This document shows, piece by piece, positions 6,855 through 60,632 of a DNA stretch of 64,000 nucleotides (position 1 is its first letter; every line of letters begins with the position of its first letter). Source of the stretch: Coriobacteriia bacterium (GTDB lineage: Bacteria; Actinomycetota; Coriobacteriia; Anaerosomatales; JAAXUF01); the NCBI GenBank assembly GCA_038249135.1, contig JBBRWO010000002.1, forward strand, positions 3,203-67,202, read 5' to 3'. The notes under the pieces were generated by a model. That model was not told the origin of the DNA. It did not search any database and saw only the letters and a program-made list of their open reading frames with translations. A program made the translations under genes and the position numbers.

Positions 6855-7019
6855 TCGCGCAGTCACCTCCTTGTTCGATGCGATCTGGCAACGGCCGCAC
6901 ACCCGGGCAGGCATGGCCGTGGCGCTTTGATGGTCCCCTCGGGGCAGGAACTTCCTGCCTTCACTAGGAAATACTACAGAATCCCGCGCAGTTGTCACGC
7001 CTTGCCTATTTCGCGACTT

Positions 7020-7676
7020 TCAGAGTGCGTTTCTTTCCGAGGTCTTGAGCAGCTTCGCAAGCCACGCGAGCACGGCCGCGCCCATCGCCATAGTGAGCGC
7101 CCACGCGGCTCCGGACGTGGCCCAGAAGGGCTCTGGGAACGTCTGGATCAGCAGCGAGTCATACGCGAATGTCCACGTCCCCGAGGCGAAGAACAACCCG
7201 TGAAACGCCGTGAAGAAGCTGTCGAAATTAGAGACGGCCGCGATGACGGCCAGGATGATCAGTGCCAGCGTGAGGATTGCTCCCGCCCGCAGCGCCACAA
7301 CGATGGCGTCGATCCGCTTACGCCTGAACTTCACCACGATCCACCCGGTCACGAGCAGCGTGAGCACGCCAGTGAAGAGTCGCGCGCGGCTCAGAATCAC
7401 GCGCACGTCGACCAGATGTGAACTCGCGGCCGCGTCGAACCCGGATCGGCCGTCGACAGTGACCGGTAGCGTATCAGCATTGCTCTCCACGACAAACGCG
7501 CGAACCTGCTCGGCGACTTCGAGCATGCGCTCGGAGGGCAGCCCGGCCTCCTCGGCAAGGGAATAGCGCGAGGAGAGGGTGCGCGTGAAGGCGGCGCCTG
7601 TGAGGGGCAGGATGGCGATTCCGGCAACCATCAGCGCGAGTGCGAAGCCAATGGCCCATGCCGAGAAGGATCGCAT
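7020..7676 (-). CDS. Integral membrane protein (TIGR01906/DUF1461-like)
   Basis: Four TM segments with an extracytoplasmic loop, and a C-terminal region FHGLFFASGTWTFAYDSLLIQTFPEPFW. The start at 7676 lies 4 nt after the upstream stop. The family was recalled from memory. Confidence 0.6.
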   Translation of the reverse strand: MRSFSAWAIGFALALMVAGIAILPLTGAAFTRTLSSRYSLAEEAGLPSERMLEVAEQVRAFVVESNADTLPVTVDGRSGFDAAASSHLVDVRVILSRARLFTGVLTLLVTGWIVVKFRRKRIDAIVVALRAGAILTLALIILAVIAAVSNFDSFFTAFHGLFFASGTWTFAYDSLLIQTFPEPFWATSGAAWALTMAMGAAVLAWLAKLLKTSERNAL

Positions 7677-7680
7677 CGCG

Positions 7681-8997
7681 CTACAGCTCGGTCGGGTCGG
7701 CGGGGTACAGCGCGTCGTCGTCGGTCGTAAGGTCGTGCTCGGTCGAAGTGTCGTCGCTCTGGCGATCATCGGCCCGAGACAGTTCGAGTGACGATGCCGT
7801 GACCACGACGTTGCCGCCGGCATCGATAGCGGCGGCAAGCGCCTGATCCGCCGCGTCGAGAAGCTCGTCGACGGTGGTGGCGTCGGTGGGGAGTGACGCC
7901 AACCCTACAGAGACGCTGACGCACGCCTCGTCTACGTTCGTGGCGCCGATCGCCCGGCGCAAATTGTCGGCAAGATGGGCGGCGTCGGCGGCGCTGGGAG
8001 CGCTTTGAGTCGCTGCGTCCTCGGCCAGAAGCACCGCGAACTCTTCTCCGCCGATTCTCGCAGCAAGGTTGGATGTGATGTTGGCATCGTCGGTGGTGTC
8101 GAGACATCCGGTGATCGTCGTGGCGATGGCCTGCAGTAGCTTGTCGCCATGCTCGATACCGAATCGCTTGTTGAACTCGCCAAAGCTATCGATGTCGAGC
8201 AGGATCAGGTGGATCGGACGACCGTCACGGTGTGCTCGGCGGATCTCAGAAGCGAGAGCCTGGAGGAAGAATCCGCGCGAGTAAAGGCCCGTGGCAGCGT
8301 CCAACACGGTCAATGACTGGCGGCCTGACTCCTCTACGCGCTGCTCATGCACCAGCTGCGTGGCGACCGCTGCTGTACCGGCGAGAACCGCGACCTGCCA
8401 CAGATAGCGCACAAAGACGAAGACGGGATCACGGTACAGATCCGAGGTGGCAAACGGCATCGTCACGTGTGGAAGCGCGCCCGCAAGCTCAATCAGTTCC
8501 ATGCCGCCGAGCAGCGTCACGCAGAGAATCGCCAGGCCCCAGGCATCTCGGCGACGTTGGAGGATGAATGTGGCTTCGAGGATGAACAGCGAATACATCG
8601 ACCAGAACCACGAGTTCACACTGCCCGAGAAGTACACGAGGACCGTCACAACCAGCGCATCGAGCGCGAGCTGGAGGTTGTTCCATACGGCGATATTGCC
8701 CAGCCGCTTGTAGTTGAGCTGATAGAACATGTTGTAGATGACAACGAAGCCGAGTGCGACGGCGGGTATCGCCATGCGCTGCACCAGCTCGTGGAGAGGC
8801 ATGACGGTCGAATACGCCAGGCCGGCCAACGTCGAGTACGCAACGAGGACGATCAGGAGCGCCCAGCGGATGCGGACGACGAGTCCTACTCGGCGGATAT
8901 TCGCCTGAAGGGCTTCGATGTCGTAGCGCGTAGGCTGCTCTCGCCACGACACCATGAGGGCGCGTTCGATTCGCTTCTTGAGCCGGCTTGGAGTCAA
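7681..8997 (-). CDS. Membrane-bound diguanylate cyclase (GGDEF domain)
   Basis: There are about 6 N-terminal TM helices, then GLYSRGFF...LILLDIDSFGEFNKRFGIEHGDKLL...RIGGEEFAVLL. The TTG start has a GGAGG SD 8 nt upstream. Confidence 0.85.
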   Translation of the reverse strand: MTPSRLKKRIERALMVSWREQPTRYDIEALQANIRRVGLVVRIRWALLIVLVAYSTLAGLAYSTVMPLHELVQRMAIPAVALGFVVIYNMFYQLNYKRLGNIAVWNNLQLALDALVVTVLVYFSGSVNSWFWSMYSLFILEATFILQRRRDAWGLAILCVTLLGGMELIELAGALPHVTMPFATSDLYRDPVFVFVRYLWQVAVLAGTAAVATQLVHEQRVEESGRQSLTVLDAATGLYSRGFFLQALASEIRRAHRDGRPIHLILLDIDSFGEFNKRFGIEHGDKLLQAIATTITGCLDTTDDANITSNLAARIGGEEFAVLLAEDAATQSAPSAADAAHLADNLRRAIGATNVDEACVSVSVGLASLPTDATTVDELLDAADQALAAAIDAGGNVVVTASSLELSRADDRQSDDTSTEHDLTTDDDALYPADPTEL

Positions 8998-15256: not shown

Positions 15257-16900
15257 CTAGCCGAGGATCTCGGCCAAGTCGGCCGCGGCGGACTCGCCGA
15301 TCGGCTTGATGTTGAAGTTCTCGACGAGCACGCCCAGCACGTTGGGGGTGATGAACGCCGGGAGTGTGGGTCCGAGGCGCATGTCGGTGATGCCGAGGGA
15401 GAGCAGCGTCAGCAGGACCGCGACGGCCTTCTGCTCGTACCACGACAGGATGATCGAGAGCGGCAGCTCGTTTACGCCGACCTCGAACGCGTCGGCAAGG
15501 GCCACGGCGATCTTGATCGCCGAGTAGGCGTCGTTGCACTGGCCTACGTCCATGAGGCGCGGCAGACCGCCGATCTCGCCCAGCTGCTTATCGAAGAAGC
15601 GGAACTTGCCGCATGCGAGCGTCAGTACGATGGTGTCGGCCGGGGTCTGCTCCACGAAATCCGTGTAGTAGTTGCGACCGGGCTTGGCGCCGTCGCAGCC
15701 GCCCACCAGGAAGAAGTGCTTGATCGCGCCGGATTTAACCGCCTCGATAACCGTCGGGGCGACGGACAGCACGGTGTTGTGACCGAAGCCGACCATGACC
15801 TCGACGGCGTCGGCGGTGGTGTCCTCGGCGAATCCGTCCATTGCGAGCGCCTTGTCGACAACCGCCGAGAAGTCAGCGCGCGACACGTGCGGCAGGCCCG
15901 GGAACTGCACGGGGCCGGAGGTGAATACGCGGTCCGTGTAAGACGCCTTGGGCGGCATCAGGCAGTTGGTGGTCATCAGCACGGCGCCGGGGAAGTTCGC
16001 GAACTCCTTGTGCTGGTTTTGCCACGCGGTGCCAAAGTGGCCGATGAACTGCGGATGCTTCTTGAGCTCCGGGTAGGCGTGCGTCGGCAGCATCTCACCG
16101 TGGGTGTAGACGTTGACGCCGGTGCCGTCGGTGGCCTTGAGGATCGCGTCCATATCGGCCAGATCGTGGCCGGAGACGAGAATCGCCTTGCCGGCCGCAT
16201 GGCCGAGCGGGACCTTGGTGGGGACAGGCTGACCGTAGGTGCCGGTGTTGGCCTCGTCGAGGATCTCCATGGCGCGCAGGTTCACCGAGCCACACTCGAG
16301 CGTCAGCGCGACCCAGTCGTTCAGGGTGAGCGACTCGTCGGAGAATGCAGCAAGTGCCTTGAACAGGTAGCTATAGATCATAGGGTCGGTCTTGCCCAGT
16401 GTGCGAGCGTGCTGCTCGTAGGCGCCGACGCCCTTCATGCCGTAAAGCGTGGTCTCCTGCAGCGACTGGATGTCAGGATCGGCCTCGCCGTTCCACGTCA
16501 CGCCCAGCTCCTGGCCCTGGGCGACCTTGCCCTCGACCGAGACGGCCGGGACGAACGTCGCGTAGATGCCCTCGTAGTGTGCGGGGCCACCGGCAGCCGC
16601 AACCGCAGCCTTCAGCGACTCGCGCAACGTGTAGGCCTCGTCGACGATTCCCGCGATGGACTGCGGGTCGAAGTCGACGTTGGTGAGCGTGGTGAACAGC
16701 GCGTCAGCGACGAACGCTCCGGCCGCGGCCGTGTCCACACCAAGCTTCTCGGCGTCGACTGCCACGAGCGCAATTCCGCGGCACGAGTTGACGAGCAGAT
16801 CCTGCAGAGCCGCGACGTCTTCCTTCTTGCCGCACACCCCCACAGTCGTACAGGCCTCGCCGTGAGCCGTCTGCTCACACTGATTACAGAACATAGACAT
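15257..16900 (-). CDS. hcp: Hybrid cluster protein / hydroxylamine reductase
   Basis: The N-terminus MSMFCNQCEQTAHGEACTTVGVCGK carries Cx2Cx8Cx5C. The remainder is conserved (GHDL, TNCLMPP, LACGKFRF). The ATG at 16900 has a GGGGAG SD. Confidence 0.95.
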   Translation of the reverse strand: MSMFCNQCEQTAHGEACTTVGVCGKKEDVAALQDLLVNSCRGIALVAVDAEKLGVDTAAAGAFVADALFTTLTNVDFDPQSIAGIVDEAYTLRESLKAAVAAAGGPAHYEGIYATFVPAVSVEGKVAQGQELGVTWNGEADPDIQSLQETTLYGMKGVGAYEQHARTLGKTDPMIYSYLFKALAAFSDESLTLNDWVALTLECGSVNLRAMEILDEANTGTYGQPVPTKVPLGHAAGKAILVSGHDLADMDAILKATDGTGVNVYTHGEMLPTHAYPELKKHPQFIGHFGTAWQNQHKEFANFPGAVLMTTNCLMPPKASYTDRVFTSGPVQFPGLPHVSRADFSAVVDKALAMDGFAEDTTADAVEVMVGFGHNTVLSVAPTVIEAVKSGAIKHFFLVGGCDGAKPGRNYYTDFVEQTPADTIVLTLACGKFRFFDKQLGEIGGLPRLMDVGQCNDAYSAIKIAVALADAFEVGVNELPLSIILSWYEQKAVAVLLTLLSLGITDMRLGPTLPAFITPNVLGVLVENFNIKPIGESAAADLAEILG

Positions 16901-17000
16901 GGTCAACTCCCCTTTTCCATTTCGTGGTCCTTCCGGCATTTCGTTCTTCAAGCAACTCAGCCGCAGTTTCACGGCGTAATGAACTTCGAGGCTCTTTCGT

Positions 17001-17023
17001 CCTGGACCTGACCATGGTCCAGG
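17001..17023. promoter_or_regulatory. Inverted repeat upstream of hcp (candidate operator)
   Basis: cctggacc-tgaccat-ggtccagg, with 8-bp perfect arms and a 7-nt spacer. It lies about 100 nt upstream of the hcp ATG. Confidence 0.3.
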
Positions 17024-17053
17024 TCTTCCCTAAGCCACATGCAGTCTCACGGA

Positions 17054-17180
17054 GAGCACGGGGCCGTGGGGGTCCCGCGCGAGTTCCGCAGCCGGGGTAG
17101 GTGGTCGGATGCATCGCATCCGTCCACCGAGGGCCCCCGGCAAGGACTGCCGAGCCCGGGACCCCCACGGCCCCGTGCTC
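17054..17180. repeat. 127-nt nested inverted repeat (rod-like hairpin) between the ferredoxin gene and hcp
   Basis: The outer arms are a perfect 24-bp pair: gagcacggggccgtgggggtcccg (17054-17077) and cgggacccccacggccccgtgctc (17157-17180). Inside are ccgggg/ccccgg (6 bp) and ggtggtcggatgc/gcatccgtccacc (13 bp, 1 mismatch, 3-nt loop). Confidence 0.9.
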
Positions 17181-17190
17181 GGCAGCAAGA

Positions 17191-17601
17191 CTACCCGTGG
17201 ATGAGCGCCGGCAAGCACCGAGTGCAAACCCACGTGCTGGTCCCCTGGGTCCGCACCGGCAACAGTGGCCCGTCATCCTCGGATCGGTTGCAGACGTAAC
17301 AGTGCTGCGCGATGTAGACCGGCTTGTTGGCCGCGACCGCCTCGGCGAGCTTCTCGGCGACGCGATCCTCTACGGCGGCCTCGTCAAACGGCACGGCTTC
17401 GCGGGTCTCGAGGGTCAGCGCGCCGGTGGGACATACGCCCAGGCAGAAGCCGGCGCCGTCGCACAACTCCTCTTTGACGACCTTGGCCTTGCCGTCGATC
17501 AGGACGATGGCGCCCTCGGCACACGGGCTGACACAGACGCCGCAGCCGTTGCAGAGCTCTTCATCGATATGGACGATTTGGCGGGTGACGGTGGTACTCA
17601 T
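17191..17601 (-). CDS. 2x[4Fe-4S] ferredoxin-domain protein with C-terminal CxxC...CxxC
   Basis: [16 protein letters not shown] and [16 protein letters not shown], with a C-terminal CYVC...CTRC. An AGGAGG SD is present. Its ATG overlaps the upstream TGA as ATGA. Confidence 0.85.
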
Positions 17602-18188
17602 CGGGTTTCCTCCTGGTGAATGGGGGTGCCGGCGGCCGCGGCGGCGGCCTTCTCGGCGGCGAGTCTCTTGTATTTCCGACCGTCGAGCACGTGCTTGATG
17701 CCGGCGATCGCGTAGCCTTTGCGCCACGACTTGGGACCCGAGTAGCGCATCATGCCCTGCTGCCATGCGCGCTCGTCGGCCTTGTAGCAGTGGGTCTCGC
17801 AGTAGGCGCAGAACGGCTTGGGGTCTTCCGGGCAGTACGCGCGTCGCTTCTCGGCGTAGGCGAGGTGCGCTTCGCACTCCTCACAGAGAACCGGGAGCTT
17901 ACGGCCGTAGATGCCCAGCTGGGCGGCCTCGGTCTGCGCGCTGTGCCGCGTTCGATCGCGGTGATGACCGTCGCACCAGATGGCGATGAAGTCACCGAGC
18001 GTGGTCGTATCGCTGACCACTTCCGAGTCCCTCATGCGCTCCACGAACTTCTGGTTCACTGCCCTGAGCCCTTCCGCGAATGCGACCGTGCGATTGCGGT
18101 ACCGGTCCGGCGATCTCGCGGGCACGTAGTCCTTACCCGCTCTCGCACCGTACGCTCCCCACACGGTGTGTTCTTTGACGCGGGTCAA
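17598..18188 (-). CDS. YgbA-like (nitrous-oxide-stimulated promoter family) Cys-rich protein with N-terminal extension
   Basis: IAIWCDGHH...[36 protein letters not shown]...MMRYSGP, matching the remembered YgbA pattern. The TTG start is from the ORF track and is uncertain. Confidence 0.65.
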
Positions 18189-18244
18189 TTCGCCGAAGAA
18201 TCTTTACACTGGGGGTAGGAAATGAGGGACGCCCCCATCCGATC

Positions 18245-19000
18245 ATGCGCGAATCCAGCGCAGTCACGCCGCGAAAGGCACCTGTGACAGCACCAAGCAA
18301 CATCCGTCCCGACGTGTGGGCCGCACTCCGAGGCTGCCGCCTCTGGCGCACCGCCTCAGATGACGCCGTCGCGGTACTGGCCCGTCGCGCGCACGTTCGC
18401 GAACTGGCTCGCGGTGCGTCGCTGGCACGTGAGGGCGAAGCCGCCGAGGAGTTCGGCGTGCTGGTGACCGGAAAGGCGCGGGTGTTCTATCTTGGCGCCG
18501 ACGGTCGGCAGATCACCTTCGAGACGATCTCTGCCGGCGAGCCACTGGCCGCCGTCGCTGCCATGGCAAACTCGCGCTACCCGGCCAACATCGAGGCTGC
18601 TACTCCGGCGACTGTCGCGTGCATCCCAACCGATGCGCTGTTCGATCTGCTCACCGCAGAGCCCCAGGTGGCGCGAACGCTGGTCGCGGACCTCGCGAAC
18701 CGGGTGGTGAACTTCACGGCCGTCGTTAGCACGCTGGCGCTCGATGTTCCCAGCCGAGTAGCCCGCTACGTCTTCCACCGCGCGCTGCAGTCGGGCACGA
18801 CGAGCTCGCGCGGACTCGAGATCGAGCTTGGCATGAAGAAGGGCGAGCTCGCGATGGCGCTCGGAACCGTGCCCGAGACGCTCTCTCGCGCGTTCGCGAA
18901 GCTCAAGGACGACGGCATCCTCGAGGTGCACGGTCAGTTGGTCACCATCCTGGACATGCGCGCGCTTGCAGCGCTGAGCAGCGGCTACGACGAGGGTTAG
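18245..19000 (+). CDS. Crp/Fnr family transcription regulator (HcpR-like by context)
   Basis: A cNMP-binding-type beta-barrel (GEAAEEFGVLVTGKARVFYLGADGRQITF) and a C-terminal HTH (MKKGELAMALGTVPETLSRAFAKLKDDGIL). It is divergent from the ygbA-fdx-hcp genes. Confidence 0.85.
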   Translation: MRESSAVTPRKAPVTAPSNIRPDVWAALRGCRLWRTASDDAVAVLARRAHVRELARGASLAREGEAAEEFGVLVTGKARVFYLGADGRQITFETISAGEPLAAVAAMANSRYPANIEAATPATVACIPTDALFDLLTAEPQVARTLVADLANRVVNFTAVVSTLALDVPSRVARYVFHRALQSGTTSSRGLEIELGMKKGELAMALGTVPETLSRAFAKLKDDGILEVHGQLVTILDMRALAALSSGYDEG

Positions 19001-32856: not shown

Positions 32857-35547
32857 TCAGCTCGCGGAGCGACGCCCCGTGACCACTTTCGCGATGTCGA
32901 TCGCTATGACCGGCAACAGAATCGCCGGCAGCATGATCGACCATTCAGTCCAGCCGAGCGGAGTGGTGCGCAGAATCCTGTCGGCGCCGGGAAGGTAAAC
33001 GACGAGCATTTGCAGCGCGATGCCGCCTGCTATCGCAGCGAGCAACAGCGGGTTCTCGGCGCTGGCACGGGAGAAGATCGAGCGCGTCCTCGAGCGAAAA
33101 CTGAGCGAGAACAGCAGTTTCTGGATGACCAGTGCGGTGAACGCTGCCGTCTGAGCGCTGACGACCGCGCCGGCATACTGCGGAGCAAACGCCTCGTGGG
33201 TAAGCGGCACGCCGTATGCGGCCAGTACCCCCACATAGGCGCCCAGCGTTCCCACTGACAACACGGCGCCTCGCGACAGGATGCTGACGACCGAGCGCCG
33301 CGTGATGATGCCCTCGCTCGCGCCGCGCGGCGGACGCTGCATGATGCCCGGCTCCCCTGGGTCGACACCCAATGCCAGTGCTGGCAGGCTGTCGGTCGCC
33401 ATGTTGGTCCACAGCAACTGAACCGGATAGAGAGGCACCGGCAGGCCGGCAACGGTGGCGACAAACATGAGGAAGACCTGGCTCGCGTTGGCAGAGAGCA
33501 GAAACCGCATGAATTTGGTGAGGTTCGTGAACACCACGCGCCCCGAATGAATCGCCGTGACGATCGTGGCGAAGTTGTCGTCGGCGAGAATCATGTCCGA
33601 GGCGTCCTTCGCAACCTCGGTACCCGTCTGACCCATCGCCACGCCAACATCAGCTGCCGAGAGAGCCGGCGCGTCGTTTACGCCATCGCCCGTCACCGCG
33701 ACGACGTGCCCCTTCGCCTGAAGTGCTTGCACGATCCTCATCTTGTGCAGCGGATCGACGCGCGCGATCACCGTGGCGTCATCGAGCGCGCTCGCCAGTT
33801 CCGCGTCCGTGAAGTGCTCGATATCCCGGCCGTTGAGCACGCGTCCCGACTCGGGCAGGCCGACCTCTGTTGCGATCGCCCGTGCGGTCACCTCGTGGTC
33901 GCCGGTCACCATGATCACGCGCACGCCGGCCCCATGCGCCTGGCGCATCGCCTCGGGCACCTCGGCGCGTGGAGGATCGATCAGGCCGATAAGCCCGAGC
34001 AGCGTCATCTGCTGCTCGGCGGTCTCGAGCGCCACGGGTCGTTCGGCGAAGCGGCGCTCGGCGACGGCAAGAGTTCGCAGGCCGTTCTCGGCCATTCCGA
34101 GCACGGCGGCCTCTGCCTCCTTTCGCGTCGACTCGTCGATCACGCAGCGAGCGAGAATGACCTCCGGCGCGCCCTTGGTGAAGGCGACCCAGCCGTCGGG
34201 CTCGCGATGCAGCGTGGTCATCATCTTGCGCTCCGAGGTGAATCCGATCTCGCTCTCACGCGGCGCCTCGGCCTCCGCCGTCGTCTTCTCACGTCCGACC
34301 TTGCCGGCGGCCGCGACCAGCGCCGTCTCCGTGGGATCGCCGATCACGTCGTCCCCGGTCACCTCGGAGTCGTTGACCAGTGCGGCCGCCCGCAGCAACG
34401 CGCGCGCCCACTCCGGCGAGTCCCCGGAAAACTCAGGCTCGCCCAGAAGCCGTCCGCCGAGTCCGTCGAGTTTCACGACCGTCATGCGGTTGAGCGTCAG
34501 CGTGCCGGTCTTGTCGGTGACGATGACGTCGGTGGACCCCAAGGTCTCGACCGAGTGCATCTTGCGGATGATGGCGTTTTGCTCGGCCATGCGCTTCACG
34601 CCGACACCGAGGGTGATGGTGACGACAGCCGTCAGCGCCTCCGGAATCGCCGAGACGGCAAGCGCGATCGCTGCCAGTGCCATCTCGTCGAACGGGCGGC
34701 CCGCCGTCACGCCGGAGATGAACACGATGCTCGAGGCCCCGACGACGAACAGCGCGATCGCTCGGCCTACCCGCTTGAGCTCCTTTTGCAGCGGCGTGAC
34801 CGGCTCCTGGCCACTCGCGTACTCGGCGATGCGCCCAAGCTCGGTGCGGCTACCTGTGGCAACGACCACGCCCGCGCCCCGCCCGCGCTGAACTGTCGCG
34901 CCAAGGCTCGCCAGGTTGCGCTGATCGCCCAACCCGACGTGGTCGAGATCGATGGCCTCAACCGACTTGAGCACAGGCAGTGATTCGCCGGTGAGCGAGG
35001 ATTCATCGACCTCAAGGTCGGCGACCTCGATGAGTCGCATGTCTGCAGGAACCACATCGCCCGCCGCAAGCACGACGACGTCACCCACCACGAGAGCTCG
35101 GGCCGGAATGGATCGTTTGCTCCCCCCGCGCAGGACTGTGGCGATCGGAGCCGACATCTCCCGCAGCGCGTCGACGGCCGCCTGAGCCTTGTCTTCCTGA
35201 ATGAAGCCGAGAAACGCATTGAGAACGAGGATCACGCCGATGACTGCGGCGTCCACGAAGTCTCTGCCGGCTGCAGCAATCAGCGCCGCAGCGATGAGTA
35301 ACCACACCATCAGGTCGTTGAACTGAGAGAAGAACATTCCCAGCCGAGAGGTCCTCTTGGGCGGTGGCAGTTCATTGGGTCCGTCGACACTGAGCCTCTC
35401 GGCGGCGACGCTCGGCTCAAGGCCGTTGTTGGCGCTGCTGCCGGTGCGCTCGAGTGCTTCTTCCACCGTGGCTCGATACCACGCGGGCAGAACAGGGTCG
35501 GGAGTGGCGACGTCATTGAGATTCGCGCGAGTCTGGGTCTTGGGCAC
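32857..35547 (-). CDS. P-type cation-transporting ATPase (P2-like)
   Basis: DKTGTLTLNRM, TGES, MVTGDH and VAVTGDGVNDAPAL motifs, with 10 TM helices. The GTG at 35547 has a GGAGG SD 5 nt upstream. The track start at 35640 abuts the riboswitch. Confidence 0.9.
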   Translation of the reverse strand: MPKTQTRANLNDVATPDPVLPAWYRATVEEALERTGSSANNGLEPSVAAERLSVDGPNELPPPKRTSRLGMFFSQFNDLMVWLLIAAALIAAAGRDFVDAAVIGVILVLNAFLGFIQEDKAQAAVDALREMSAPIATVLRGGSKRSIPARALVVGDVVVLAAGDVVPADMRLIEVADLEVDESSLTGESLPVLKSVEAIDLDHVGLGDQRNLASLGATVQRGRGAGVVVATGSRTELGRIAEYASGQEPVTPLQKELKRVGRAIALFVVGASSIVFISGVTAGRPFDEMALAAIALAVSAIPEALTAVVTITLGVGVKRMAEQNAIIRKMHSVETLGSTDVIVTDKTGTLTLNRMTVVKLDGLGGRLLGEPEFSGDSPEWARALLRAAALVNDSEVTGDDVIGDPTETALVAAAGKVGREKTTAEAEAPRESEIGFTSERKMMTTLHREPDGWVAFTKGAPEVILARCVIDESTRKEAEAAVLGMAENGLRTLAVAERRFAERPVALETAEQQMTLLGLIGLIDPPRAEVPEAMRQAHGAGVRVIMVTGDHEVTARAIATEVGLPESGRVLNGRDIEHFTDAELASALDDATVIARVDPLHKMRIVQALQAKGHVVAVTGDGVNDAPALSAADVGVAMGQTGTEVAKDASDMILADDNFATIVTAIHSGRVVFTNLTKFMRFLLSANASQVFLMFVATVAGLPVPLYPVQLLWTNMATDSLPALALGVDPGEPGIMQRPPRGASEGIITRRSVVSILSRGAVLSVGTLGAYVGVLAAYGVPLTHEAFAPQYAGAVVSAQTAAFTALVIQKLLFSLSFRSRTRSIFSRASAENPLLLAAIAGGIALQMLVVYLPGADRILRTTPLGWTEWSIMLPAILLPVIAIDIAKVVTGRRSAS

Positions 35548-36961: not shown

Positions 36962-39787
36962 GTGATCAAGACCGACATCTCAGTTGCTGAAGCCGACGGT
37001 GCAGTCGCCGTCCAACCACCCGTCGCGTACCACACACTCACCATCGACCAGGTCGCGGCCGCCCTCGCGACAGACCCTGTCGGCGGCCTGAGCGCGGCAG
37101 AAGCCACACGCCGTCACGCCGAGAACGGGCCCAACCTGCTTCGTGAGACCAAGCCCACGCCCAAGTGGAAGCTGCTGGCGCGCCAGTTCGAGGACTTCAT
37201 GATCTGGGTGCTCATGGGAGCTGCGCTGCTTGCCGGACTCCAGGGCGAGTGGATTGACACTGCGGCCATCGTCACGATCCTGGTACTCAACGCAGTACTC
37301 GGATTCGCGCAGGAGTTCCGAGCCGAGCAGGCGCTTGCGGCGCTGAAGGAACTCTCAGCGCCAACCGCCCACGTGGTACGTGATGGCATCGAGTCCTCCA
37401 TCCACGCCTCGGAGCTTGTCGTGGGCGACGTCGTGGTCCTTGAGGCCGGCGACCAGATTCCTGCCGACGGTCGACTCCAGGAAGCGGCAGCACTGCGAAT
37501 CATCGAGTCCGCGCTGACCGGTGAAAGCGAGCCGGTCCACAAGTCGACCGTGCCGGTCCCAGATCCCAACGCATCGCTGGGCGACCGCGTGGACATGGTA
37601 TTCGCAGGCACTGCAGTCGCCGTAGGCCGTGGCCGCGTGATCATCACTGCCACCGGAACCGCTACCCAGGTAGGCAAGATCGCCGACCTCCTCGCGGAGC
37701 AAGAAGATGAGCAGACGCCGCTCCAGGCCGAGCTTCAGCGCGTGGGCAAGCGTATCGCCCTCATCGTGCTGGTCATCGCCGCCCTCATCTTCGCCGAGCA
37801 GCTCGCAACGGTCTTCGTAAGCACCGGCGACACCTTCGTCGAGGCGATCAACGACCCGGTCTTCCGCGTGGGTTTCACCGGCGCACTCCTGATCGCCGTC
37901 TCGCTCGCGGTCGCCGCGATTCCCGAGGGGCTGCCCGCTGTCGTCACCATCGCGCTCTCGCTGGGAGTGCGTCGCATGGCCGAGCACAACGCGATCGTCC
38001 GGCGCCTGACAGCTGTTGAGACGCTGGGCTCCACCACGTTCATCTGCTCGGACAAGACCGGCACGCTGACGCGCAACGAGATGACGGTGCGCCGCGCCGT
38101 GGTCGGGTTCGACTCCATCGCGATCAGTGCGGACTGGGGCATCGAACCCGAGGACCGCGTGCCGCACGGCGACGACATGGCACTGCTGCTCCAGATGGCC
38201 GCCGCCAACAACGATGCGCGTCCTAAACCGGACGGCGGTTTCCTCGGCGATCCGACGGAGACGGCGCTTCTCGAGGCTGCGAGCCGACTCGCTCCCGGTC
38301 ACCTGCGTCCTCGGCGTGTGAGTGAAGTCCCCTTCGATTCCGAGCGTAAGCGCATGACCACCATCCATGCGCTTGAGGATGAGCGGATCGCGTTCGTGAA
38401 GGGCGGCGCCGACGTGGTGCTCGGCCTGTGCACTCGCGCGCGTATCCGCGGCGAAGTCATCGAGCTCGACGACTCCGGTCGCGAAAAGCTGCGCACCACC
38501 AACGAGAATCTCGCATCGAGCGGGTTTCGCACGCTCGCCTTCGCCACCCGGACCCTCTCCGCCGATGAGGACGTCGAGAGCGAGACAATCGAGCGCGACC
38601 TGACGTATGTCGGCATTCTCGGCCTGGTCGATCCGCCGCGTGAAGAGGTGGCGGCGGCGCTCGCGGAGTGCAAGCATGCCGGCATCAAGGTCGCCATGGT
38701 CACGGGCGACCACGCGCTGACTGCTCGTGCCATCGCGATCCAGATCGGGTTGCTCGATGCGGATGCGCCGGAGACCTCGGTCATCACCGGCACAGAGCTC
38801 GCCTCGATGACCGACCAAGAACTGTGCGCTCGCGCCGAGGACGTTCGTGTCTACGCCCGCGTGAACCCTGAGGATAAGATCAGAATCGTCTCGGCGCTGA
38901 AGAACGACGGCGAGATAGTCGCCATGACCGGCGACGGAGTGAACGATGCGCCAGCGCTCAAGCGTGCTGACATCGGCATCGCGATGGGCAACATCGGTAC
39001 CGACGTGGCCCGAGAAGCCGCCGACATGGTGCTCGCCGACGACAACTTCGCGACGATCGTCGAGGCCGTGGGAGAAGGCCGCACCGTCTTCGATAACCTA
39101 CAGAAGGTCATCCTCTTCCTGCTTTCGTGCAACATGAGCGAGGTGCTGGTCGTGTTCACGACCGCCATCTTCGTCGCGTTCTTCCCTGAGCACGCACTGC
39201 TTGCGCTCCTGCCGTTGCAGTTGCTGTGGATCAACTTGGTCACAGACGGTCCACCTGCGCTCGCGTTGGGCGTCGACCCCGCCGATCCCACGGTCATGGA
39301 CCGTATGCCCCGCGACTCCAAGGAGCCGATCCTCTCGGGTCCGAGGATGAGCGAGGTCATCTGGCAGGGTGCGGTCATGACCGTCTTCGCGCTGGGAGCG
39401 ACGTTCGCTGCCGGCCCCCTCCTCGGCAGCACCGACGGCGCCGAGAACACGATGCTGTTCACCATCTTGGTGCTGTCGCAGAAACTCCATGCGTTCAACT
39501 ATCGCAGCGCGCGCGGTACCGTCTTCTCGATGCAGTCACTGCAGAACCGCTGGCTCAACATCGCCTTCGTGGCGACGGTGGCGTTGCAGATATCGGTCGT
39601 TCACTGGGAGCCGATGCAGAAGCTCTTCAAGACGACCGCACTCGGTACTCAAGAATGGATGCTGGTCGTCGGCTCGGCGTTCGCCTCGTTGCTGGTCATG
39701 GATCTGGTCAAGATAGTCATCGAGCGACGTCTGGCTGCCCGCGAAGCAACGGGCCGCGGTTCCGGTAGAGCGGAGGGTGCACGATGA
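36962..39787 (+). CDS. P-type cation-transporting ATPase (P2A/Ca2+-ATPase-like)
   Basis: CSDKTGTLTRNEM, TGESEPV, MVTGDH and AMTGDGVNDAPAL motifs. The GTG at 36962 has a GAGGAG SD 6 nt upstream. The track start at 36854 lies inside the riboswitch. Confidence 0.9.
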   Translation: MIKTDISVAEADGAVAVQPPVAYHTLTIDQVAAALATDPVGGLSAAEATRRHAENGPNLLRETKPTPKWKLLARQFEDFMIWVLMGAALLAGLQGEWIDTAAIVTILVLNAVLGFAQEFRAEQALAALKELSAPTAHVVRDGIESSIHASELVVGDVVVLEAGDQIPADGRLQEAAALRIIESALTGESEPVHKSTVPVPDPNASLGDRVDMVFAGTAVAVGRGRVIITATGTATQVGKIADLLAEQEDEQTPLQAELQRVGKRIALIVLVIAALIFAEQLATVFVSTGDTFVEAINDPVFRVGFTGALLIAVSLAVAAIPEGLPAVVTIALSLGVRRMAEHNAIVRRLTAVETLGSTTFICSDKTGTLTRNEMTVRRAVVGFDSIAISADWGIEPEDRVPHGDDMALLLQMAAANNDARPKPDGGFLGDPTETALLEAASRLAPGHLRPRRVSEVPFDSERKRMTTIHALEDERIAFVKGGADVVLGLCTRARIRGEVIELDDSGREKLRTTNENLASSGFRTLAFATRTLSADEDVESETIERDLTYVGILGLVDPPREEVAAALAECKHAGIKVAMVTGDHALTARAIAIQIGLLDADAPETSVITGTELASMTDQELCARAEDVRVYARVNPEDKIRIVSALKNDGEIVAMTGDGVNDAPALKRADIGIAMGNIGTDVAREAADMVLADDNFATIVEAVGEGRTVFDNLQKVILFLLSCNMSEVLVVFTTAIFVAFFPEHALLALLPLQLLWINLVTDGPPALALGVDPADPTVMDRMPRDSKEPILSGPRMSEVIWQGAVMTVFALGATFAAGPLLGSTDGAENTMLFTILVLSQKLHAFNYRSARGTVFSMQSLQNRWLNIAFVATVALQISVVHWEPMQKLFKTTALGTQEWMLVVGSAFASLLVMDLVKIVIERRLAAREATGRGSGRAEGAR

Positions 39788-51870: not shown

Positions 51871-52748
51871 TCGTCATCCCTTCCGGGTACTGCTACTGCC
51901 TCGGCGTCAGTGAGAAGCCGGAATATCCTCTCGAGCTCCTCTTCACCATGGAAATCAATCTCTATCTTGCCCTTATCCTTTGTGAGCTTCACCTTGACGT
52001 TGGTGTTCAGGAGCCGACGGAGCGACCGGGCGACCACCTTGAACGTCTTAGGGGTTGCAGGACGAGGCGTCCGCTCGGTCTGCCCTGCAGCGTAGAGCCG
52101 CGCGAGGTTTTCGGCCTCCCGAACCGAGAGCCCGTCCTCGACAATTCTTTTTGCCAGCCTGGATCGAACCTCGTCATCGGGCACTGATAGAACCGCACGG
52201 GCGTGACCAGCGGAAAGCCGACCGTCGTAGACGAACTCCTGCACATCCTCTGGCAGATCAAGAAGACGAAGTGCATTTGTGATGGTCGAGCGAGATTTCG
52301 AGACCTTATCCGCGAGCTCCGCTTGCGTCATGCGATGAACTGTCAATAATTTCCTGTAGCCTCGAGCCTCTTCGACGGCATTCAGGTCACGGCGCTGAAG
52401 GTTCTCGATAAGCGCCATCTCGAGGGATTCGATTTCAGTCGATGCGCGTACACACACTGGCACGCGCTCTAGGCCCGCGATTCGGGACGCCCTCCATCGA
52501 CGCTCACCGGCGATGATCTGATATCCCTCGCCCTGTGGTCTCACGAGAATAGGATTCAGGAGGCCGAACTTGGAAATGGAGTCCGCGAGCTCTGCAATCG
52601 ATTCATCGTCTAGGTCTGTTCGGGGCTGATCAGGGTTCGGGGTGATGAGGTCGACCGACAACTCACGCACGTCTTCTGAGGTCTGTGACTCTTGCGACGC
52701 GCTCGGAATGAGCGCCGAAAGACCCCTGCCAAGCCCACGCTTAGTCAC
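51867..52748 (-). CDS. parB: Chromosome partitioning protein ParB (Spo0J)
   Basis: GLGRGLSALIP, NPDQPR, ILVRP...YQIIAGERRWRAS, and an HTH (MTQAELADKVSKSRSTITNALRLL). Confidence 0.95.
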   Translation of the reverse strand: MTKRGLGRGLSALIPSASQESQTSEDVRELSVDLITPNPDQPRTDLDDESIAELADSISKFGLLNPILVRPQGEGYQIIAGERRWRASRIAGLERVPVCVRASTEIESLEMALIENLQRRDLNAVEEARGYRKLLTVHRMTQAELADKVSKSRSTITNALRLLDLPEDVQEFVYDGRLSAGHARAVLSVPDDEVRSRLAKRIVEDGLSVREAENLARLYAAGQTERTPRPATPKTFKVVARSLRRLLNTNVKVKLTKDKGKIEIDFHGEEELERIFRLLTDAEAVAVPGRDDE

Positions 52749-53541
52749 GATCGATCACTTCCTTAGCCAGATTCATATAGGCCTCAGCACCCTTGCCAGT
52801 GGGATCGTACAACGTAACCGGCTGGCCAAAGCTAGGAGCTTCAGAGAGTCGGACCGTTCTAGGGATAAGTGTCTTGAACACCTTGTCGTCGAAGAAATCA
52901 CGTACTTCTTCGACGACCTGCTGAGCGAGCCTGGTTCTCGAGTCATACATCGTCATGACAACACCGAACACTTCCAGCTCGGGGTTCAGGTGAGTCTTCA
53001 CCAGGCGGACGCTGTCAAGAAGCTTAGACAGGCCCTCAAGGGCATAGAATTCGCACTGGATTGGAATGAGGAGCCCATCGGCGGCGGTCAGCGCGTTGAG
53101 CGTCAGGAGCCCGAGCGATGGCGGGCAGTCAATGATGATGAAATCAAAGTCTTTACGGACCGTTTTGAGGATTGCGCGGAGCTTCGTCTCCCGACTCATG
53201 GCCGAAACTAACTCAATCTCTGCTCCAGCAAGCTGAATAGTTGCAGGAACGACGAACACGTGTTCGATTTCCACGGGCTCAATCATCTGTTCAATCGACG
53301 CATCACCAAGCAGCGCGTTGTAGATACAGAGCTCACGCTGATTCTTGTTGAGGCCAAAACCCGAGGTCGCGTTGCCCTGGGGATCTAGGTCGACCAGAAG
53401 GACCTTACTCCCCAATTGACCGAGCGACGCCGAAAGGTTCACGGCCGTCGTGCTCTTGCCAACCCCGCCCTTCTGGTTGACCACAGCAAGAACCCGGGCA
53501 GATCGAACGGGTGACTCACCTCCGGCGGCAAACTCGTTCAC
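52741..53541 (-). CDS. parA: Chromosome partitioning ATPase ParA (Soj)
   Basis: The deviant Walker A is AVVNQKGGVGKSTTAVNL. DLDPQGN and IIIDCPPSLG are also present. The GTG start has a GGGGGA SD. Confidence 0.95.
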   Translation of the reverse strand: MNEFAAGGESPVRSARVLAVVNQKGGVGKSTTAVNLSASLGQLGSKVLLVDLDPQGNATSGFGLNKNQRELCIYNALLGDASIEQMIEPVEIEHVFVVPATIQLAGAEIELVSAMSRETKLRAILKTVRKDFDFIIIDCPPSLGLLTLNALTAADGLLIPIQCEFYALEGLSKLLDSVRLVKTHLNPELEVFGVVMTMYDSRTRLAQQVVEEVRDFFDDKVFKTLIPRTVRLSEAPSFGQPVTLYDPTGKGAEAYMNLAKEVIDRD

Positions 53542-53612
53542 GCATCCCCCTTATTCAGAGCAACCATTCGACTCGCAAGTATAGCGAACTCAGTACCGGA
53601 AAGGAACAGAGC

Positions 53613-54338
53613 CTACCCGAGCGGCGAGTGTTGAGCGAGACCTTCACGACGGGGCAAGGAGACAGCACTCCGCCCCGTCTTGACGTATGCGATGACACAT
53701 CGCTGCTCGTCACCTCCTGGAAGCCTGAAGTGGCGCTTCGATTTGAGGCGAAGCCCAACAATTCCTGCGGCAACGTCTCCAGAGTCGAGTTCGCCCTGCG
53801 ACGGATCTCCCTTTAGCGCAACTAGGACTCCGCCATCACAAAGAAGGGGAGCCGCGAGTTCGGCCAGGCTGGCTAGCGGAGCGACCGCTCGGGCAGTAAT
53901 GACTGCGTACTCGCCGGCATGTTTCCGTGCATGCTGTTCAGCACGGTCATGGCTTACCCGAATCTGACGGTCCAGGCCCATGTCCATCAGAATTCCGGCG
54001 GCAATGTCCGCCTTCTTTCGAACGGAATCAAGAAGCGTGCAGTCGCGTCCGGAGACCACGGCAAGCGGGACGCCGGGAAAGCCGGCTCCCGTACCTATAT
54101 CGCACAAGGGGCCATCAACGGCTGAGCGGATTTCAGTAAGCGCGCATAGGCTATCGAGGATGTGCAGACGCAGCGCCTGTTCGGGATCGGTGATTCTTGT
54201 TAGATTCGTCGTTTCATTGGCAGCGAGGACAGCGTTCAGATACCGCACCAGCACAATTAGAGATTGGTCCGATGCCTCGATCGACGATTCAGCACACCGT
54301 CTAGAGAGCAACGCCGTTTGGGACTCGGAATGTTTCAC
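53613..54338 (-). CDS. rsmG: 16S rRNA (guanine527-N7)-methyltransferase RsmG (GidB)
   Basis: NLTRITDPEQALRLHILDSL, and the SAM-binding motif DIGTGAGFPGVPLA. The GTG start lies inside the first parS site. Confidence 0.9.
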   Translation of the reverse strand: MKHSESQTALLSRRCAESSIEASDQSLIVLVRYLNAVLAANETTNLTRITDPEQALRLHILDSLCALTEIRSAVDGPLCDIGTGAGFPGVPLAVVSGRDCTLLDSVRKKADIAAGILMDMGLDRQIRVSHDRAEQHARKHAGEYAVITARAVAPLASLAELAAPLLCDGGVLVALKGDPSQGELDSGDVAAGIVGLRLKSKRHFRLPGGDEQRCVIAYVKTGRSAVSLPRREGLAQHSPLG

Positions 54339-54346
54339 GTGAAACT
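54331..54346. other. parS centromere-like site (15/16 to TGTTTCACGTGAAACA)
   Basis: Reads TGTTTCACGTGAAACt. It overlaps the rsmG GTG start codon (54336-54338). Confidence 0.8.
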
Positions 54347-54515
54347 CCTATCTGGGAATCGTCATTCTAACATGGCCGAAATCCATAGTCGCTGTCGACA
54401 GATCGGTTGGGCTTGCCCGAGGCAGCGATTTCGCCTCGCGAATCGGCGCCGCTGCTCGATCTGCGCTAGATTGCACTCACGAATTCGACGTTCCACGCTT
54501 CATCAGGCCATCGTA

Positions 54516-54531
54516 TGTTTCACGTGAAACC
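54516..54531. other. parS centromere-like site (15/16 to TGTTTCACGTGAAACA)
   Basis: Reads TGTTTCACGTGAAACc. It lies 185 bp from the first copy. Both copies are preceded by A, so ATGTTTCACGTGAAAC is shared. Confidence 0.8.
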
Positions 54532-54783
54532 CTCGCATGAGTTCAACTGACCGGAATGCATGCCAGAACTTGGCGACTCGTGGAGTCTTGGCAGCAAACG
54601 GCCGGTTGAATACCCGGTTTAGGTGATGCGCGCATTGTCCCGGGGGACTTTGCTCGATCGTCGATGTGCTTCCTGCAGTTCGCCATGGGCTGAGCGGACT
54701 TTGAGCCGTAGGCGCTCCACGCCAAGGGTAAGGATGAATCTGGGCTCGCTCGGCGCGTGACGAAGCACTCACTTGCCAAACAC

Positions 54784-55107
54784 CTACCTCGGCAGCCAGC
54801 CCGCTAAGGTCCAGTAGCCGTTGCCGTGCAATTCAGCAGCTGAACGATCCTTGCTGGCGGATATTCCGGAATCGCCACCAAGCAGCGAGGTCTGGCGATC
54901 TCCAGCAATTGGCCAGACACTGTTGGCCTGAACAGAAGTTCGCCCGACTGTCCCGGCGGAGTCGGTCGCCCCGTCCGCTTCGAGAAAGTAGGTTCCGATA
55001 CGCCACGAGTTGGAACTATTCACAGGTCCCGACCGAGCCATCTGCGCTGCTGCGCGGATGGAGTACCCAGGTGGACGTCTCCCGTCGCGACGCTCGACAA
55101 CCTGCAT
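54784..55107 (-). CDS. Hypothetical protein (weak call)
   Basis: A 107-aa ORF with no recognisable motif and no clear SD. It starts just after the jag terminator. It is the only sizeable ORF in the 840-bp rsmG-jag gap. Confidence 0.25.
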   Translation of the reverse strand: MQVVERRDGRRPPGYSIRAAAQMARSGPVNSSNSWRIGTYFLEADGATDSAGTVGRTSVQANSVWPIAGDRQTSLLGGDSGISASKDRSAAELHGNGYWTLAGWLPR

Positions 55108-55129
55108 ACCTCTCTGCTGGAGATAGCAA

Positions 55130-55153
55130 ACGAGGCGCCCGGGGGCGCCTCGT
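55130..55153 (-). terminator. Hairpin terminator downstream of jag
   Basis: A 10-bp stem, acgaggcgcc/ggcgcctcgt, with a 4-nt loop. It is followed on the minus strand by TTGCTATCT. Confidence 0.6.
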
Positions 55154-55177
55154 CGGATTACCTATGCAGAACAGACC

Positions 55178-55942
55178 CTATCTGGGAGCCACAACGACCA
55201 TTCGGAACGGCTCATCGCCTTCACTATGTGTTACGACACGTTGATCGTCACGAAGCGCGACGTGAACGACGCGACGTTCATATGCGGTCATCGGGCGCAT
55301 CTTTACGGCACCGTGCTGGCGTGCCGCACGATCCGCCGAGCGCCGTGCAATTTCCTCGATCTTCTGGCGGCGGCGATGCCTGTAGCCCTCTACATCAACA
55401 ATGACGGGGTACCTGAAGCCGAGCTGCTTGTTGGTAATAGCAGACACCAGCGCCTGCAGTGCGTCGAGCGTACGTCCATGACGACCAATAAGAAGCGCCA
55501 GGTCCCCACCGACGACATCCAAGATGATTTCGCCTTCATCCCCTTCATACTCTTCAATGGAGCTGCCTTCGATACCGAAGGTGTTCAGGATCGTCTGCAG
55601 AGCGGCGACTGCGGTGTCGGCGACCTTGTCCAGGTCCTCGTCGGCGAGCTCGCCAACTTCCCGGTACCGTTTCAGCTCATCGGGGACGTCCTCAGCGGGG
55701 TCGACCAGCACATCAGGATCGGCAGCATCGACGTTTCGTGCCTCCTCGAGCTCGGCCAGGTATGAATCCTTAACCCACACACGTACCTTGGCGTCTCGCT
55801 CGGATCCGATTCCAAATACCTTCCGACCCGCCGTTTCGAGTATTTCGTACTCGACGGCATCCTGTTGGACACCAAGCTGCTCGAGGGCCGCGTCAACAGC
55901 CTCTTCGACTGAGGCAGCCTCAGTCACGCATTCTCTCTCCAT
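55178..55942 (-). CDS. jag: Jag/KhpB RNA-binding protein (Jag_N, KH, R3H)
   Basis: N-terminus: EEAVDAALEQLGVQQDAVEYEILE. C-terminal R3H region: MTAYERRVVHVALRDDQRVVTHSEGDEPFRMVVV. The ATG is at 55942, and the track start at 56104 is an extension. Confidence 0.85.
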   Translation of the reverse strand: MERECVTEAASVEEAVDAALEQLGVQQDAVEYEILETAGRKVFGIGSERDAKVRVWVKDSYLAELEEARNVDAADPDVLVDPAEDVPDELKRYREVGELADEDLDKVADTAVAALQTILNTFGIEGSSIEEYEGDEGEIILDVVGGDLALLIGRHGRTLDALQALVSAITNKQLGFRYPVIVDVEGYRHRRRQKIEEIARRSADRAARQHGAVKMRPMTAYERRVVHVALRDDQRVVTHSEGDEPFRMVVVAPR

Positions 55943-55982
55943 CAGACAGACTCCATTCCTACAGCGCCGAGGCGCGGGATCG

Positions 55983-56762: not shown

Positions 56763-56798
56763 CCTGGAATACCTCCTCGGTTGTTTACGTGCAGGCCC

Positions 56799-57041
56799 CT
56801 AAGGGACCGGGTCATATCCGCCTGGGTTCCACGGGTGGCAACGACCAATTCGTCGCAGCGCAAGCCAGCCACCCTTAAGTAGCCCGTATTTCTCCAATGA
56901 TGTTAGCGCATAAGCCGAGCATGTCGGTGTGAACCTACACGAGGGGGGGAATGCCGGCGAGATGAAACGCCGATAGAAGCGAATCAGAAGCATCGCAAAC
57001 TGTCGCGGAAAAGCCTCAATGTGCCCACGTGGGGCGTTCAT
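56799..57041 (-). CDS. yidD: Membrane protein insertion efficiency factor YidD
   Basis: [35 protein letters not shown]...[17 protein letters not shown]. Its ATG overlaps the rnpA stop as ATGA. Confidence 0.85.
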
Positions 57042-57370: not shown

Positions 57371-57405
57371 GCGATCACGGGCCGGCGAAACGCCTAGTCC
57401 GAAGA

Positions 57406-57540: not shown

Positions 57541-57586
57541 TGTTCCTCCTAGGTGCGCCCCCTCGGAGCGGGGGCAAAGCCCGACG

Positions 57587-60622: not shown

Positions 60623-60632
60623 TCTACCCTTC

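Follow-up and report, generated by a model that had tools for sequence, protein, structure and literature searches.

A stem-loop in the ygbA-fdx-hcp operon of a Coriobacteriia bacterium as a copy of a palindromic mobile repeat family

Several kinds of small palindromic repeat and RNA hairpin known from bacteria invite comparison with the element considered here, a 127-nt rod-like hairpin at positions 17054–17180 of a 64,000-nt stretch of Coriobacteriia bacterium DNA (assembly GCA_038249135.1, contig JBBRWO010000002.1, positions 3,203–67,202; the whole stretch is hereafter the window). Rickettsia palindromic elements (RPE) are about 100–150 bp long and insert both between genes and in frame within genes, in the latter case adding translated peptide segments to the protein. 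The enterobacterial ERIC or IRU sequences, about 127 bp long, are imperfect palindromes built around a conserved central core; they occur in tens of copies per genome in transcribed intergenic regions, form shorter and longer variants via internal deletions and insertions, and affect mRNA stability in Yersinia. Intercistronic RNase III hairpins, as in the phage T7 early mRNA and the rRNA and pnp leaders, are long duplexes with internal loops whose cleavage leaves a stabilising 3′ hairpin. REPs are imperfect palindromes of 20–40 bp with an unpaired GTAG/CGTC tag at one end, and lie between unidirectional and convergent open reading frames (ORFs), with some inside genes (PMC3733652); in the survey consulted they are not reported in Actinobacteria. 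Correia elements form RNA hairpins to which RNase III binds, with cleavage or protection as the outcome (PMC2649163).

The identity of the window hairpin as one old copy of a previously undescribed palindromic mobile repeat family of uncultured Coriobacteriia is well supported. For the copy as a whole we lean towards a reading in which this new REP/RPE/Correia-like repeat is transcribed in the ygbA-fdx-hcp operon and acts there as a generic RNA stem. Its parts are as follows:

17054–17180, minus strand (mRNA sense): whole rod-like hairpin, 127 nt, one repeat-family copy; RNA fold −105 kcal/mol, z about −11
17157–17180, minus strand: 5′ arm (mRNA sense); distal ~13 nt locus-specific, proximal GGGGGTCCCG common to other type-A copies
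17054–17077, minus strand: 3′ arm, exact reverse complement of the 5′ arm
17071–17159, minus strand: strand-asymmetric conserved family core (...GCUCGGCAGUCCUUGCCGGGGGCCCU...CCCCGGCUGCGGAACUCGC...), covariance model R1
17085–17146, minus strand: core helices, UCC (17144–17146) with GGA (17085–17087) and GCCGGGG (17135–17141) with CCCCGGC (17091–17097)
17100–17128, minus strand: apical stem-loop GGUGG-A-CGGAUGC-GAU-GCAUCCG-A-CCACC; dispensable, the short variants L009, L019, L051 and L052 having lost it or carrying another structure in its place

The arms match perfectly over 24 nt across a 79-nt spacer, the match lengthening to 27 nt at 96%; no equivalent arose in 100 dinucleotide-preserving shuffles, and the hairpin is the strongest inverted repeat within the window. 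An earlier note on this DNA, made from the letters alone, had described the outer arms as exact reverse complements with further inner pairings including ccgggg/ccccgg, and both descriptions are borne out (24 of 24 nt in the arms; a GCCGGGG/CCCCGGC helix inside them). The 13-bp stem and 3-nt loop that it placed at 17113–17115 are also present (17100–17112 with 17116–17128), with 12 of the 13 positions paired rather than all. Between the core helices the unpaired UU, GCCCU, UA and UGC are conserved. RNA folding, a check the note had proposed, gave −105.1 kcal/mol for the plus and −105.3 kcal/mol for the minus strand, compared with −63 ± 3.8 kcal/mol for shuffled sequences (z about −11), with 0 of 200 shuffles folding as well; the single-stranded DNA fold, at −63.2 kcal/mol, has a z of −11.7.

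The wider family was sampled by scanning JGI metagenome contigs with a 19-base pattern from the conserved 5′ core (GTCCTNGCCGGGGGCCCNCGG), scans of collections requiring exact matches and thus under-sampling divergent members. Of 30 loci returned, about 19 are complete hairpins and the remainder are chance or coding hits. These complete hairpins share a 3′ half (CCU-N-CCCCGGCUGCGGA) that was absent from the search pattern, and have long outer stems unrelated in sequence. In an alignment of 18 cores 96% of cells are paired, against 50–57% with the partners slid, and six pairs show double changes. The covariance model built from this alignment (R1) scores members at 62–96 bits and the reverse strand at only ~15–23 bits, and the core is for that reason regarded as strand-asymmetric; the window core scores 78 bits (E = 7e-20) on the minus strand against 14.9 bits on the plus strand. 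The family consensus core reads AGUCCU-N-GCCGGGG-GCCCN-(variable apical hairpin)-UN-CCCCGGC-UGC-GGA, with conserved unpaired bases. Members are 92–135 nt long with an uninterrupted stem of 13 to 24 bp, perfect duplex runs being 13–23 bp in most members and 24 bp in the window copy. The proximal arms are partly conserved in the window's subtype, A, where ~9 bp are common (GGGGUCCSG / CSGGACCCC); the distal 12–20 bp are wholly different between loci, locus-specific yet perfectly paired. In subtype B a GTAG adjoins the core and is base-paired with CUAC. One contig (L027) has a second, divergent copy 6 kb from the first, with GGCGGGG/CCCCGCC replacing GCCGGGG/CCCCGGC.

No Hcp, ferredoxin, YgbA or regulator genes were found at the ~19 metagenome members, which occupy sites of the following kinds:

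Between convergent genes: dnaE2/dinB (L024, L041, L049); pth/M23 peptidase (L034, L038)
Between convergent genes: CDGSH protein/P-type ATPase (L032); BFN/FtsX (L039); Wzy/AdoHcyase (L045)
Within operons, sense: nadA-nadB (L030); trpE-trpGD (L027)
Within operons, antisense: hisB-hisH (L047); trpB-trpA (L044, L027, L031)

Where homologues of one flanking DnaE2, or of the HypF discussed below, carry names, they come from metagenome-assembled genomes of Coriobacteriia or Anaerosomatales. The framing of the hairpin as an hcp-operon element, adopted in the earlier note, is thus not supported: the core occurs in about 19 other contexts, none near hcp or fdx, and in in-frame inserts in hypF. An hcp-specific cis-regulatory RNA, either a riboswitch or a protein-binding leader sensing nitrosative stress, is in our view barely credible. 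Its position upstream of hcp, conserved there in eight lineages and in sense orientation, would be as expected, but the distribution of the element contradicts it, since the same core lies in both orientations beside dnaE2, pth, nadA, hisB, trpE, trpB, hypF and other genes; moreover, one hcp locus (L020) has neither fdx nor the element and carries a Crp/Fnr box 106 nt before hcp instead, and no Rfam family matches. The classes of riboswitch and gene-specific cis-RNA were rejected on the same grounds, unrelated neighbours in both orientations, and the element is most likely not an hcp-specific ligand or nitric oxide sensor.

A second copy in the window was sought by arm searches allowing three mismatches, by blastn-short, with the covariance model with filters off and with motif regular expressions, and none of the four found one, in agreement with what had been noticed earlier; the model gave 78 bits for the hairpin and 13 bits for the next-best hit elsewhere in the window. 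The carrier contigs (~115 kb) yielded one extra copy. Dispersed copies, which the earlier note had said would make the element a generic repeat, are therefore present in relatives (~19 contexts) and absent from the window; among the candidate roles it listed, that of a small palindromic mobile or repeat element is the one supported by the evidence. Searches of Rfam 15 at permissive thresholds with the window and ten other family members returned noise only, the best overlaps at the window being to mir-3155 (22.4 bits on one strand and 21.6 on the other, against a gathering score of 70) and the Deinococcus Y RNA (17.5 bits against a gathering score of 80). No match to the element came from the plasmid, phage or IMG/VR collections, and our literature search found no description of such a Coriobacteriia or Actinobacteria repeat. 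The arm 20-mer GCACGGGGCCGTGGGGGTCC gave five single exact hits in species-representative genomes, none with a partner arm; L001, L003 (Streptomyces) and L002 (Thermoanaerobaculia) were inspected and rejected as family members, being chance matches to KDPHGPVL-type coding sequence (in the Streptomyces loci presumably DUF397-like), and the other exact matches are L004 and L005 (Streptomyces). Such matches are a caution for short GC-rich probes.

These searches also bear on whether the hairpin is an independent structured RNA or small-RNA precursor, whose core would recruit a dedicated protein and whose duplex of at least 20 bp would be processed to small RNAs or act in trans. The lack of an Rfam match is compatible with this, as are the conserved unpaired core nucleotides with their covarying helices and the long perfect duplex of variable sequence that every member keeps. 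We nevertheless regard it as very unlikely, as no promoter is seen over 16800–18300, the arms have no other match in the window and no paired-arm match in species-representative genomes, and mobile-element behaviour together with arm conversion explains the variable arms more simply.

Mobility is indicated by insertions in hypF. In contig L036 the element (236–386) lies inside hypF, in frame and with the reading frame open throughout, and splits the Sua5/YrdC domain into profile positions 2–79 before the element and 98–177 after it. The HypF orthologues P0254, P0256, P0258, P0271 and P0284 (775–791 aa) are without the ~38 residues carried by L036 and its relatives. A tblastn comparison of HypF with element DNA placed insertions at two points in the protein, near residues 200 and 355 in forms of ~865 aa, and the frame and orientation in which the insert is read vary with the lineage; HypF proteins P0244–P0253 and P0255 have two in-frame copies, making them ~80 residues longer than the 775–791-aa orthologues. 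Because hypF orthologues exist with and without the insert, the element is probably mobile DNA. Of the features by which miniature inverted-repeat transposable elements (MITEs) are recognised, presence/absence polymorphism was found at the orthologous hypF sites; the terminal inverted repeats are not conserved among copies, and target duplication was seen neither at the hypF insertion nor as a direct repeat flanking the window copy, the latter as the earlier note had held. No transposase-like or other partner gene turned up in the Pfam tables of the loci read. As a separate observation, the trpE frame of L027 (5380–7158) runs through the divergent repeat copy (6861–7033) and ends in an ATGA overlap with the trpG/D start, which is either a repeat-encoded C-terminal extension or a chance open frame in GC-rich DNA.

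The age of the fdx–hcp copy was assessed in eight lineages, the window and the contigs of Hcp homologues with 94, 89, 88, 85, 76, 76 and 75% identity, all of the latter from uncultured Coriobacteriia. The element is present in 8 of the 8 sampled (window, L006, L008, L009, L017, L019, L051 and L052), with no empty allele, and in all of them the order is ygbA-fdx-hcp and the rod-like hairpin begins 1–12 nt past the fdx stop, always in mRNA sense. Four lineages (window, L006, L008, L017) have the long form, whilst in the short form of L009, L019, L051 and L052 the apical domain is swapped for a 5–7-bp hairpin. The outer stem comprises 21–25 pairs, with at least two Watson–Crick pair types at 23 of 24 indexed positions, many of them swaps between G-C and C-G, and the UCC/GGA helix covaries to UAC/GUA in L019 and L052; the covariation check suggested earlier thus found both covarying helices and a covarying outer stem. 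Between the window and L008/L017 identity is 83–85% in the inner core, 54–61% in the outer arm and 46–49% in the spacer towards hcp, compared with 61–63% at synonymous third positions of hcp. This comparison indicates that core sequence is conserved and that arm sequence drifts at about the neutral rate with pairing kept. The alignments show that the fdx–hcp copy predates the split of lineages whose Hcp proteins are 75–94% identical. Its constant sense orientation in the eight lineages, and the keeping of the stem where the apex has been lost, are hints that the site may be under some selection. Also between the hairpin and hcp, at window positions 17001–17023, is a perfect inverted repeat of 8 bp (CCTGGACC-N7-GGTCCAGG), which is not kept in the closest relative, L006.

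At other loci the core has been inverted. L034 (1091–1273) and L038 (1444–1629) are orthologous, with flanks ~95% identical (judged by eye over the alignment), and their arms are alike except for a single position at the 3′ end of the 3′ arm, whilst the core between them is inverted. P0253 and P0255, two HypF proteins, share ~98% identity on either side of the insert (again by eye, from the alignment) but encode opposite element strands (…GPRRGLSEHA… in P0253 and …SDSPRRGPS… in P0255), and at the dnaE2/dinB site element orientation differs between lineages. In hypF the distal right arm (ACGCTCGCCCCC) is conserved T-L-A-P-S coding sequence that is present in empty alleles too, and the distal left arm is its reverse complement, filling a variable linker with no added length. 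An origin of the variable arms by insertion into pre-existing terminator hairpins is disfavoured, as the hypF arm is conserved T-L-A-P-S coding sequence and its partner overwrites the linker. Homogenised arms and inverted spacers are known products of template switching (PMC8604942), a process that can both create and maintain hairpins (PMC8794818). Because G·U pairs are nearly absent, the ‘compensatory’ changes are of transversion type and cores are inverted, replication template switching between the arms is the most likely process keeping them perfect; it would also extend them into the flanks and, at other loci, invert the core (‘flip-flop’).

The same evidence would in part suit a DNA-level function, in which a cruciform or folded single strand serves as a binding or cleavage site for a Y1/RAYT-like transposase, recombinase, gyrase or nucleoid protein, in chromosome biology rather than in mRNA. 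Element orientation is independent of transcription, flip-flop inversion occurs, the arms are perfectly Watson–Crick with almost no G·U, the single-stranded DNA fold is exceptional too, and the conserved asymmetric bulges are reminiscent of the reading of folded single strands by Y1 transposases. We consider such a function decidedly improbable all the same, given that no transposase or partner gene turned up in the loci read and that copies are tightly packed in transcribed spacers beside stop codons; the 79-nt spacer between the arms, moreover, disfavours cruciform extrusion. A related and unlikely proposal is a new self-maintaining palindrome system, in which a dedicated protein would recognise the conserved asymmetric core in its folded single-stranded form, as DNA or RNA, and the element would enlarge itself by turning one flank into the reverse complement of the other. 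If true, it would explain the locus-specific perfect outer duplexes (at least 20 bp), the core flips and the surviving in-frame copies, and in its most interesting version the locus-specific duplexes would be processed in an RNase III-like manner into small RNAs tied to neighbouring genes.

With these properties the family falls within the broad class of small palindromic mobile repeats, and its behaviour is closest to RPE for in-frame insertion and to REP, Correia and ERIC sequences for transcribed intergenic hairpins; what is unusual about it is the flip-flop, together with a conserved interior enclosed by outer arms that pair perfectly yet are particular to each locus. Like RPE, the family inserts in frame, at two sites in hypF; it differs in host phylum and sequence, and RPE copies are conserved over their whole length. 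We know of no description of flip-flop or locus-specific arms for RPE. ERIC/IRU sequences share the length of ~127 bp, the conserved core, the transcribed intergenic sites and the length variants, but are unrelated in sequence and host and conserved end to end; to our knowledge they have not been reported inside ORFs or with inverted cores. In common with REPs and REPINs, the family forms palindromes that in relatives are dispersed downstream of genes, between unidirectional as well as convergent ORFs and sometimes within genes, and that are plausibly transcribed as hairpins and persist vertically for long, and its subtype B carries GTAG beside the core. Unlike REPs, its members are 92–135 nt long, the window copy is without GTAG/CGTC, the subtype B GTAG is paired and no RAYT gene was seen among the fragments of carrier genomes; and whereas a REPIN consists of two conserved REPs around a variable spacer, here an interior of 65–90 nt is conserved and the outer stem varies. 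The Correia elements of Neisseria (CREE/NEMIS), of ~100–155 bp with inverted repeats and a conserved core and often co-transcribed, are the best functional analogy for the hcp-operon copy. Their conserved 26-bp terminal inverted repeats, TA target duplication, IHF site and promoter-forming ends were not seen in the family, whose arms are locus-specific at the distal ends. Intercistronic RNase III hairpins likewise place a long duplex, interrupted by internal loops, between the cistrons of a single transcript, but they are locus-specific signals rather than a mobile repeat family, and cleavage of the family hairpin is a prediction.

Other classes were considered and rejected. An integron attC site does not fit, the outer ends being variable and without R″/R′ boxes (RYYYAAC / GTTRRRY), and the interior being the conserved part. 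The 9-nt GACAGUCCU is identical to part of the substrate of the sTRSV hairpin ribozyme, a class marked by a loop A (A/GUC opposite AGAA) between helices 1 and 2 and by a loop B. A hairpin ribozyme was dismissed: the UCC of the element is paired, with GGA, and the pair covaries to UAC/GUA, a partner for helix 2 and a loop B are both missing, and Rfam gave no hit. Readings of the core as k-turn, loop E, SRP or HDV-like did not fit its pairing or covariation.

The genes and signals around the window copy are as follows:

18245–19000, plus strand: Crp/Fnr-family regulator (cNMP_binding and HTH_Crp_2), divergent from the operon
18175–18188, no strand assigned: TTGAC-N4-GTCAA Crp/Fnr-type (HcpR-type) box between the divergent crp-like gene and ygbA
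17598–18035, minus strand: YgbA_NO-family gene, first of the operon; start near 18035 inferred from a 145-aa orthologue, stop overlapping the fdx start (ATGA)
17191–17601, minus strand: 4Fe-4S ferredoxin gene (fdx); stop codon 17191–17193, 10 nt upstream of the hairpin
15257–16900, minus strand: hcp (hybrid-cluster protein / hydroxylamine reductase), Prismane family, E = 3e-159; GGGGAG ribosome-binding site

The hcp ATG (16898–16900) lies 153 nt downstream of the hairpin, and the spacing given earlier, 10 nt past the ferredoxin stop and about 150 nt before hcp, is accurate. The TTGAC-N4-GTCAA box is the single occurrence in the window; one such box is found upstream of ygbA in each of the eight lineages (8/8), and none between hairpin and hcp in any of them (8/8), L009 having just 42 nt from the hairpin to the hcp ATG. 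No T-run follows the stem on either strand, and consensus scans of 16800–18300 found 0 terminator-like sites and no sigma-70-like or promoter-like sites. Because the only Crp/Fnr box is upstream of ygbA and no promoter-like or terminator-like signal lies near the hairpin, we infer that the hairpin is transcribed inside a single regulated ygbA-fdx-hcp mRNA, whose synthesis would have to continue across the element; on this reading the hairpin does not terminate transcription efficiently. The L009 lineage (7005–8720, plus identical contigs) has two tandem Crp/Fnr-family regulator genes upstream of the operon, where the other lineages have one, and also has two TTGA-N6-TCAA boxes.

A transcription terminator or attenuator that splits a ygbA-fdx unit from an independently transcribed hcp would account for a very stable GC-rich hairpin right after a stop codon, and for the many members between convergent genes, where bidirectional terminators are expected. 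It is nonetheless very improbable: besides the missing U-tract and terminator-like site, on which the intrinsic terminator class was rejected, the sole Crp/Fnr box stands upstream of ygbA with none before hcp, L009 leaves only its short gap for a promoter, and the members inside hypF coding sequence must be transcribed through. The statement of the earlier note that the hairpin is no classical terminator is supported by these results.

Within a ygbA-fdx-hcp mRNA the hairpin would fold as a −105 kcal/mol rod starting 10 nt past the fdx stop. This rod could block 3′-to-5′ exonucleases and/or act as an RNase III substrate, generically, in the manner of REP and Correia elements, and it may be an obstacle to ribosomes that reach the end of fdx. 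In that case the parts of the mRNA before and after the rod would be unequal in stability and yield. An RNase III substrate is proposed because the perfect duplex is at least 22 bp: about two turns (at least 20–22 bp) of uninterrupted double-stranded RNA mark such substrates, and the window copy has 24 bp. By analogy, a generic exonuclease barrier or RNase III target in the mRNA is the most likely role.

Against this reading must be set, first, that its mRNA effect would rest on physics and analogy, and that persistence at the site could be neutral. G·U pairs number 1 of ~185 in the outer stems of the eight lineages and 1 of 359 cells in the core alignment, and a strand test (G·U versus A·C pairs and fold energy) found no preference for the core-sense strand, the reverse strand being on average 4.7 kcal/mol more stable. 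The covariation would be explained equally well by DNA-level arm homogenisation as by RNA selection, and we do not read it as proof of the latter because the mRNA-sense strand has no G·U advantage and signs of template switching are present. The strand-specific core is not needed for an mRNA role, because the his (L047) and trp (L044, L027) copies are antisense, and the conserved unpaired core bases, which a generic stem does not explain, suggest a trans-acting partner (a transposase, or an RNA- or DNA-binding protein). Dispersal is seen in relatives, with one copy in the 64-kb window of the source genome and no further copy in ~150 kb of orthologous flanks. The arm-conversion and extension step draws on one locus and one protein alignment, and the flip-flop on metagenome assemblies.

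Several of these points would be met by a neutral or selfish passenger, that is, decaying or self-maintaining palindromic DNA with no selected role here, its perfect arms a by-product of template switching and its effect on the mRNA incidental and small. In-frame hypF insertions with empty-site orthologues, tolerance of both orientations in operons and between convergent genes, the near absence of G·U pairs and the loss of the apical domain in several lineages all point this way, and we hold the passenger possible, though doubtful. A passenger would hardly be expected to stay at the same site in 8 of 8 fdx–hcp lineages down to 75% Hcp identity with the adjacent spacer randomised, or in constant orientation in all eight though near-identical strains flip elsewhere, or to retain outer stems of at least 21 bp even where the interior is deleted; and a −105 kcal/mol structure 10 nt past a stop codon is hardly without effect on an mRNA. 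The generic RNA stem remains the reading that we favour for this copy.

Two side observations concern the rest of the window. Paralogous P-type cation ATPase genes at 32887–35490 (minus strand) and 37025–39643 (plus strand), ~1.5 kb apart on opposite strands, both encode proteins 40–44% identical to the ATPase flanking the repeat copy in L032. Over the last 12 kb (52000–64000) the G+C content drops from ~0.65 to 0.52–0.58, and this segment may be foreign or otherwise distinct.

For annotation, these findings remove the tempting wrong call of an hcp-specific structured RNA or nitric oxide-responsive leader, and provide both a covariance model and a consensus of a repeat family that Rfam lacks and that recurs in uncultured Coriobacteriia/Anaerosomatales, including in hypF. 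For the biology of mobile DNA the family offers a natural example of arm homogenisation, of core inversion and, probably, of a palindrome growing outward into the flanking DNA, and it illustrates that a long stem may show perfect ‘compensatory’ covariation without selection for RNA structure. For hcp biology the analysis predicts one Crp/Fnr-controlled ygbA-fdx-hcp transcript, the segments of which may be uncoupled post-transcriptionally.

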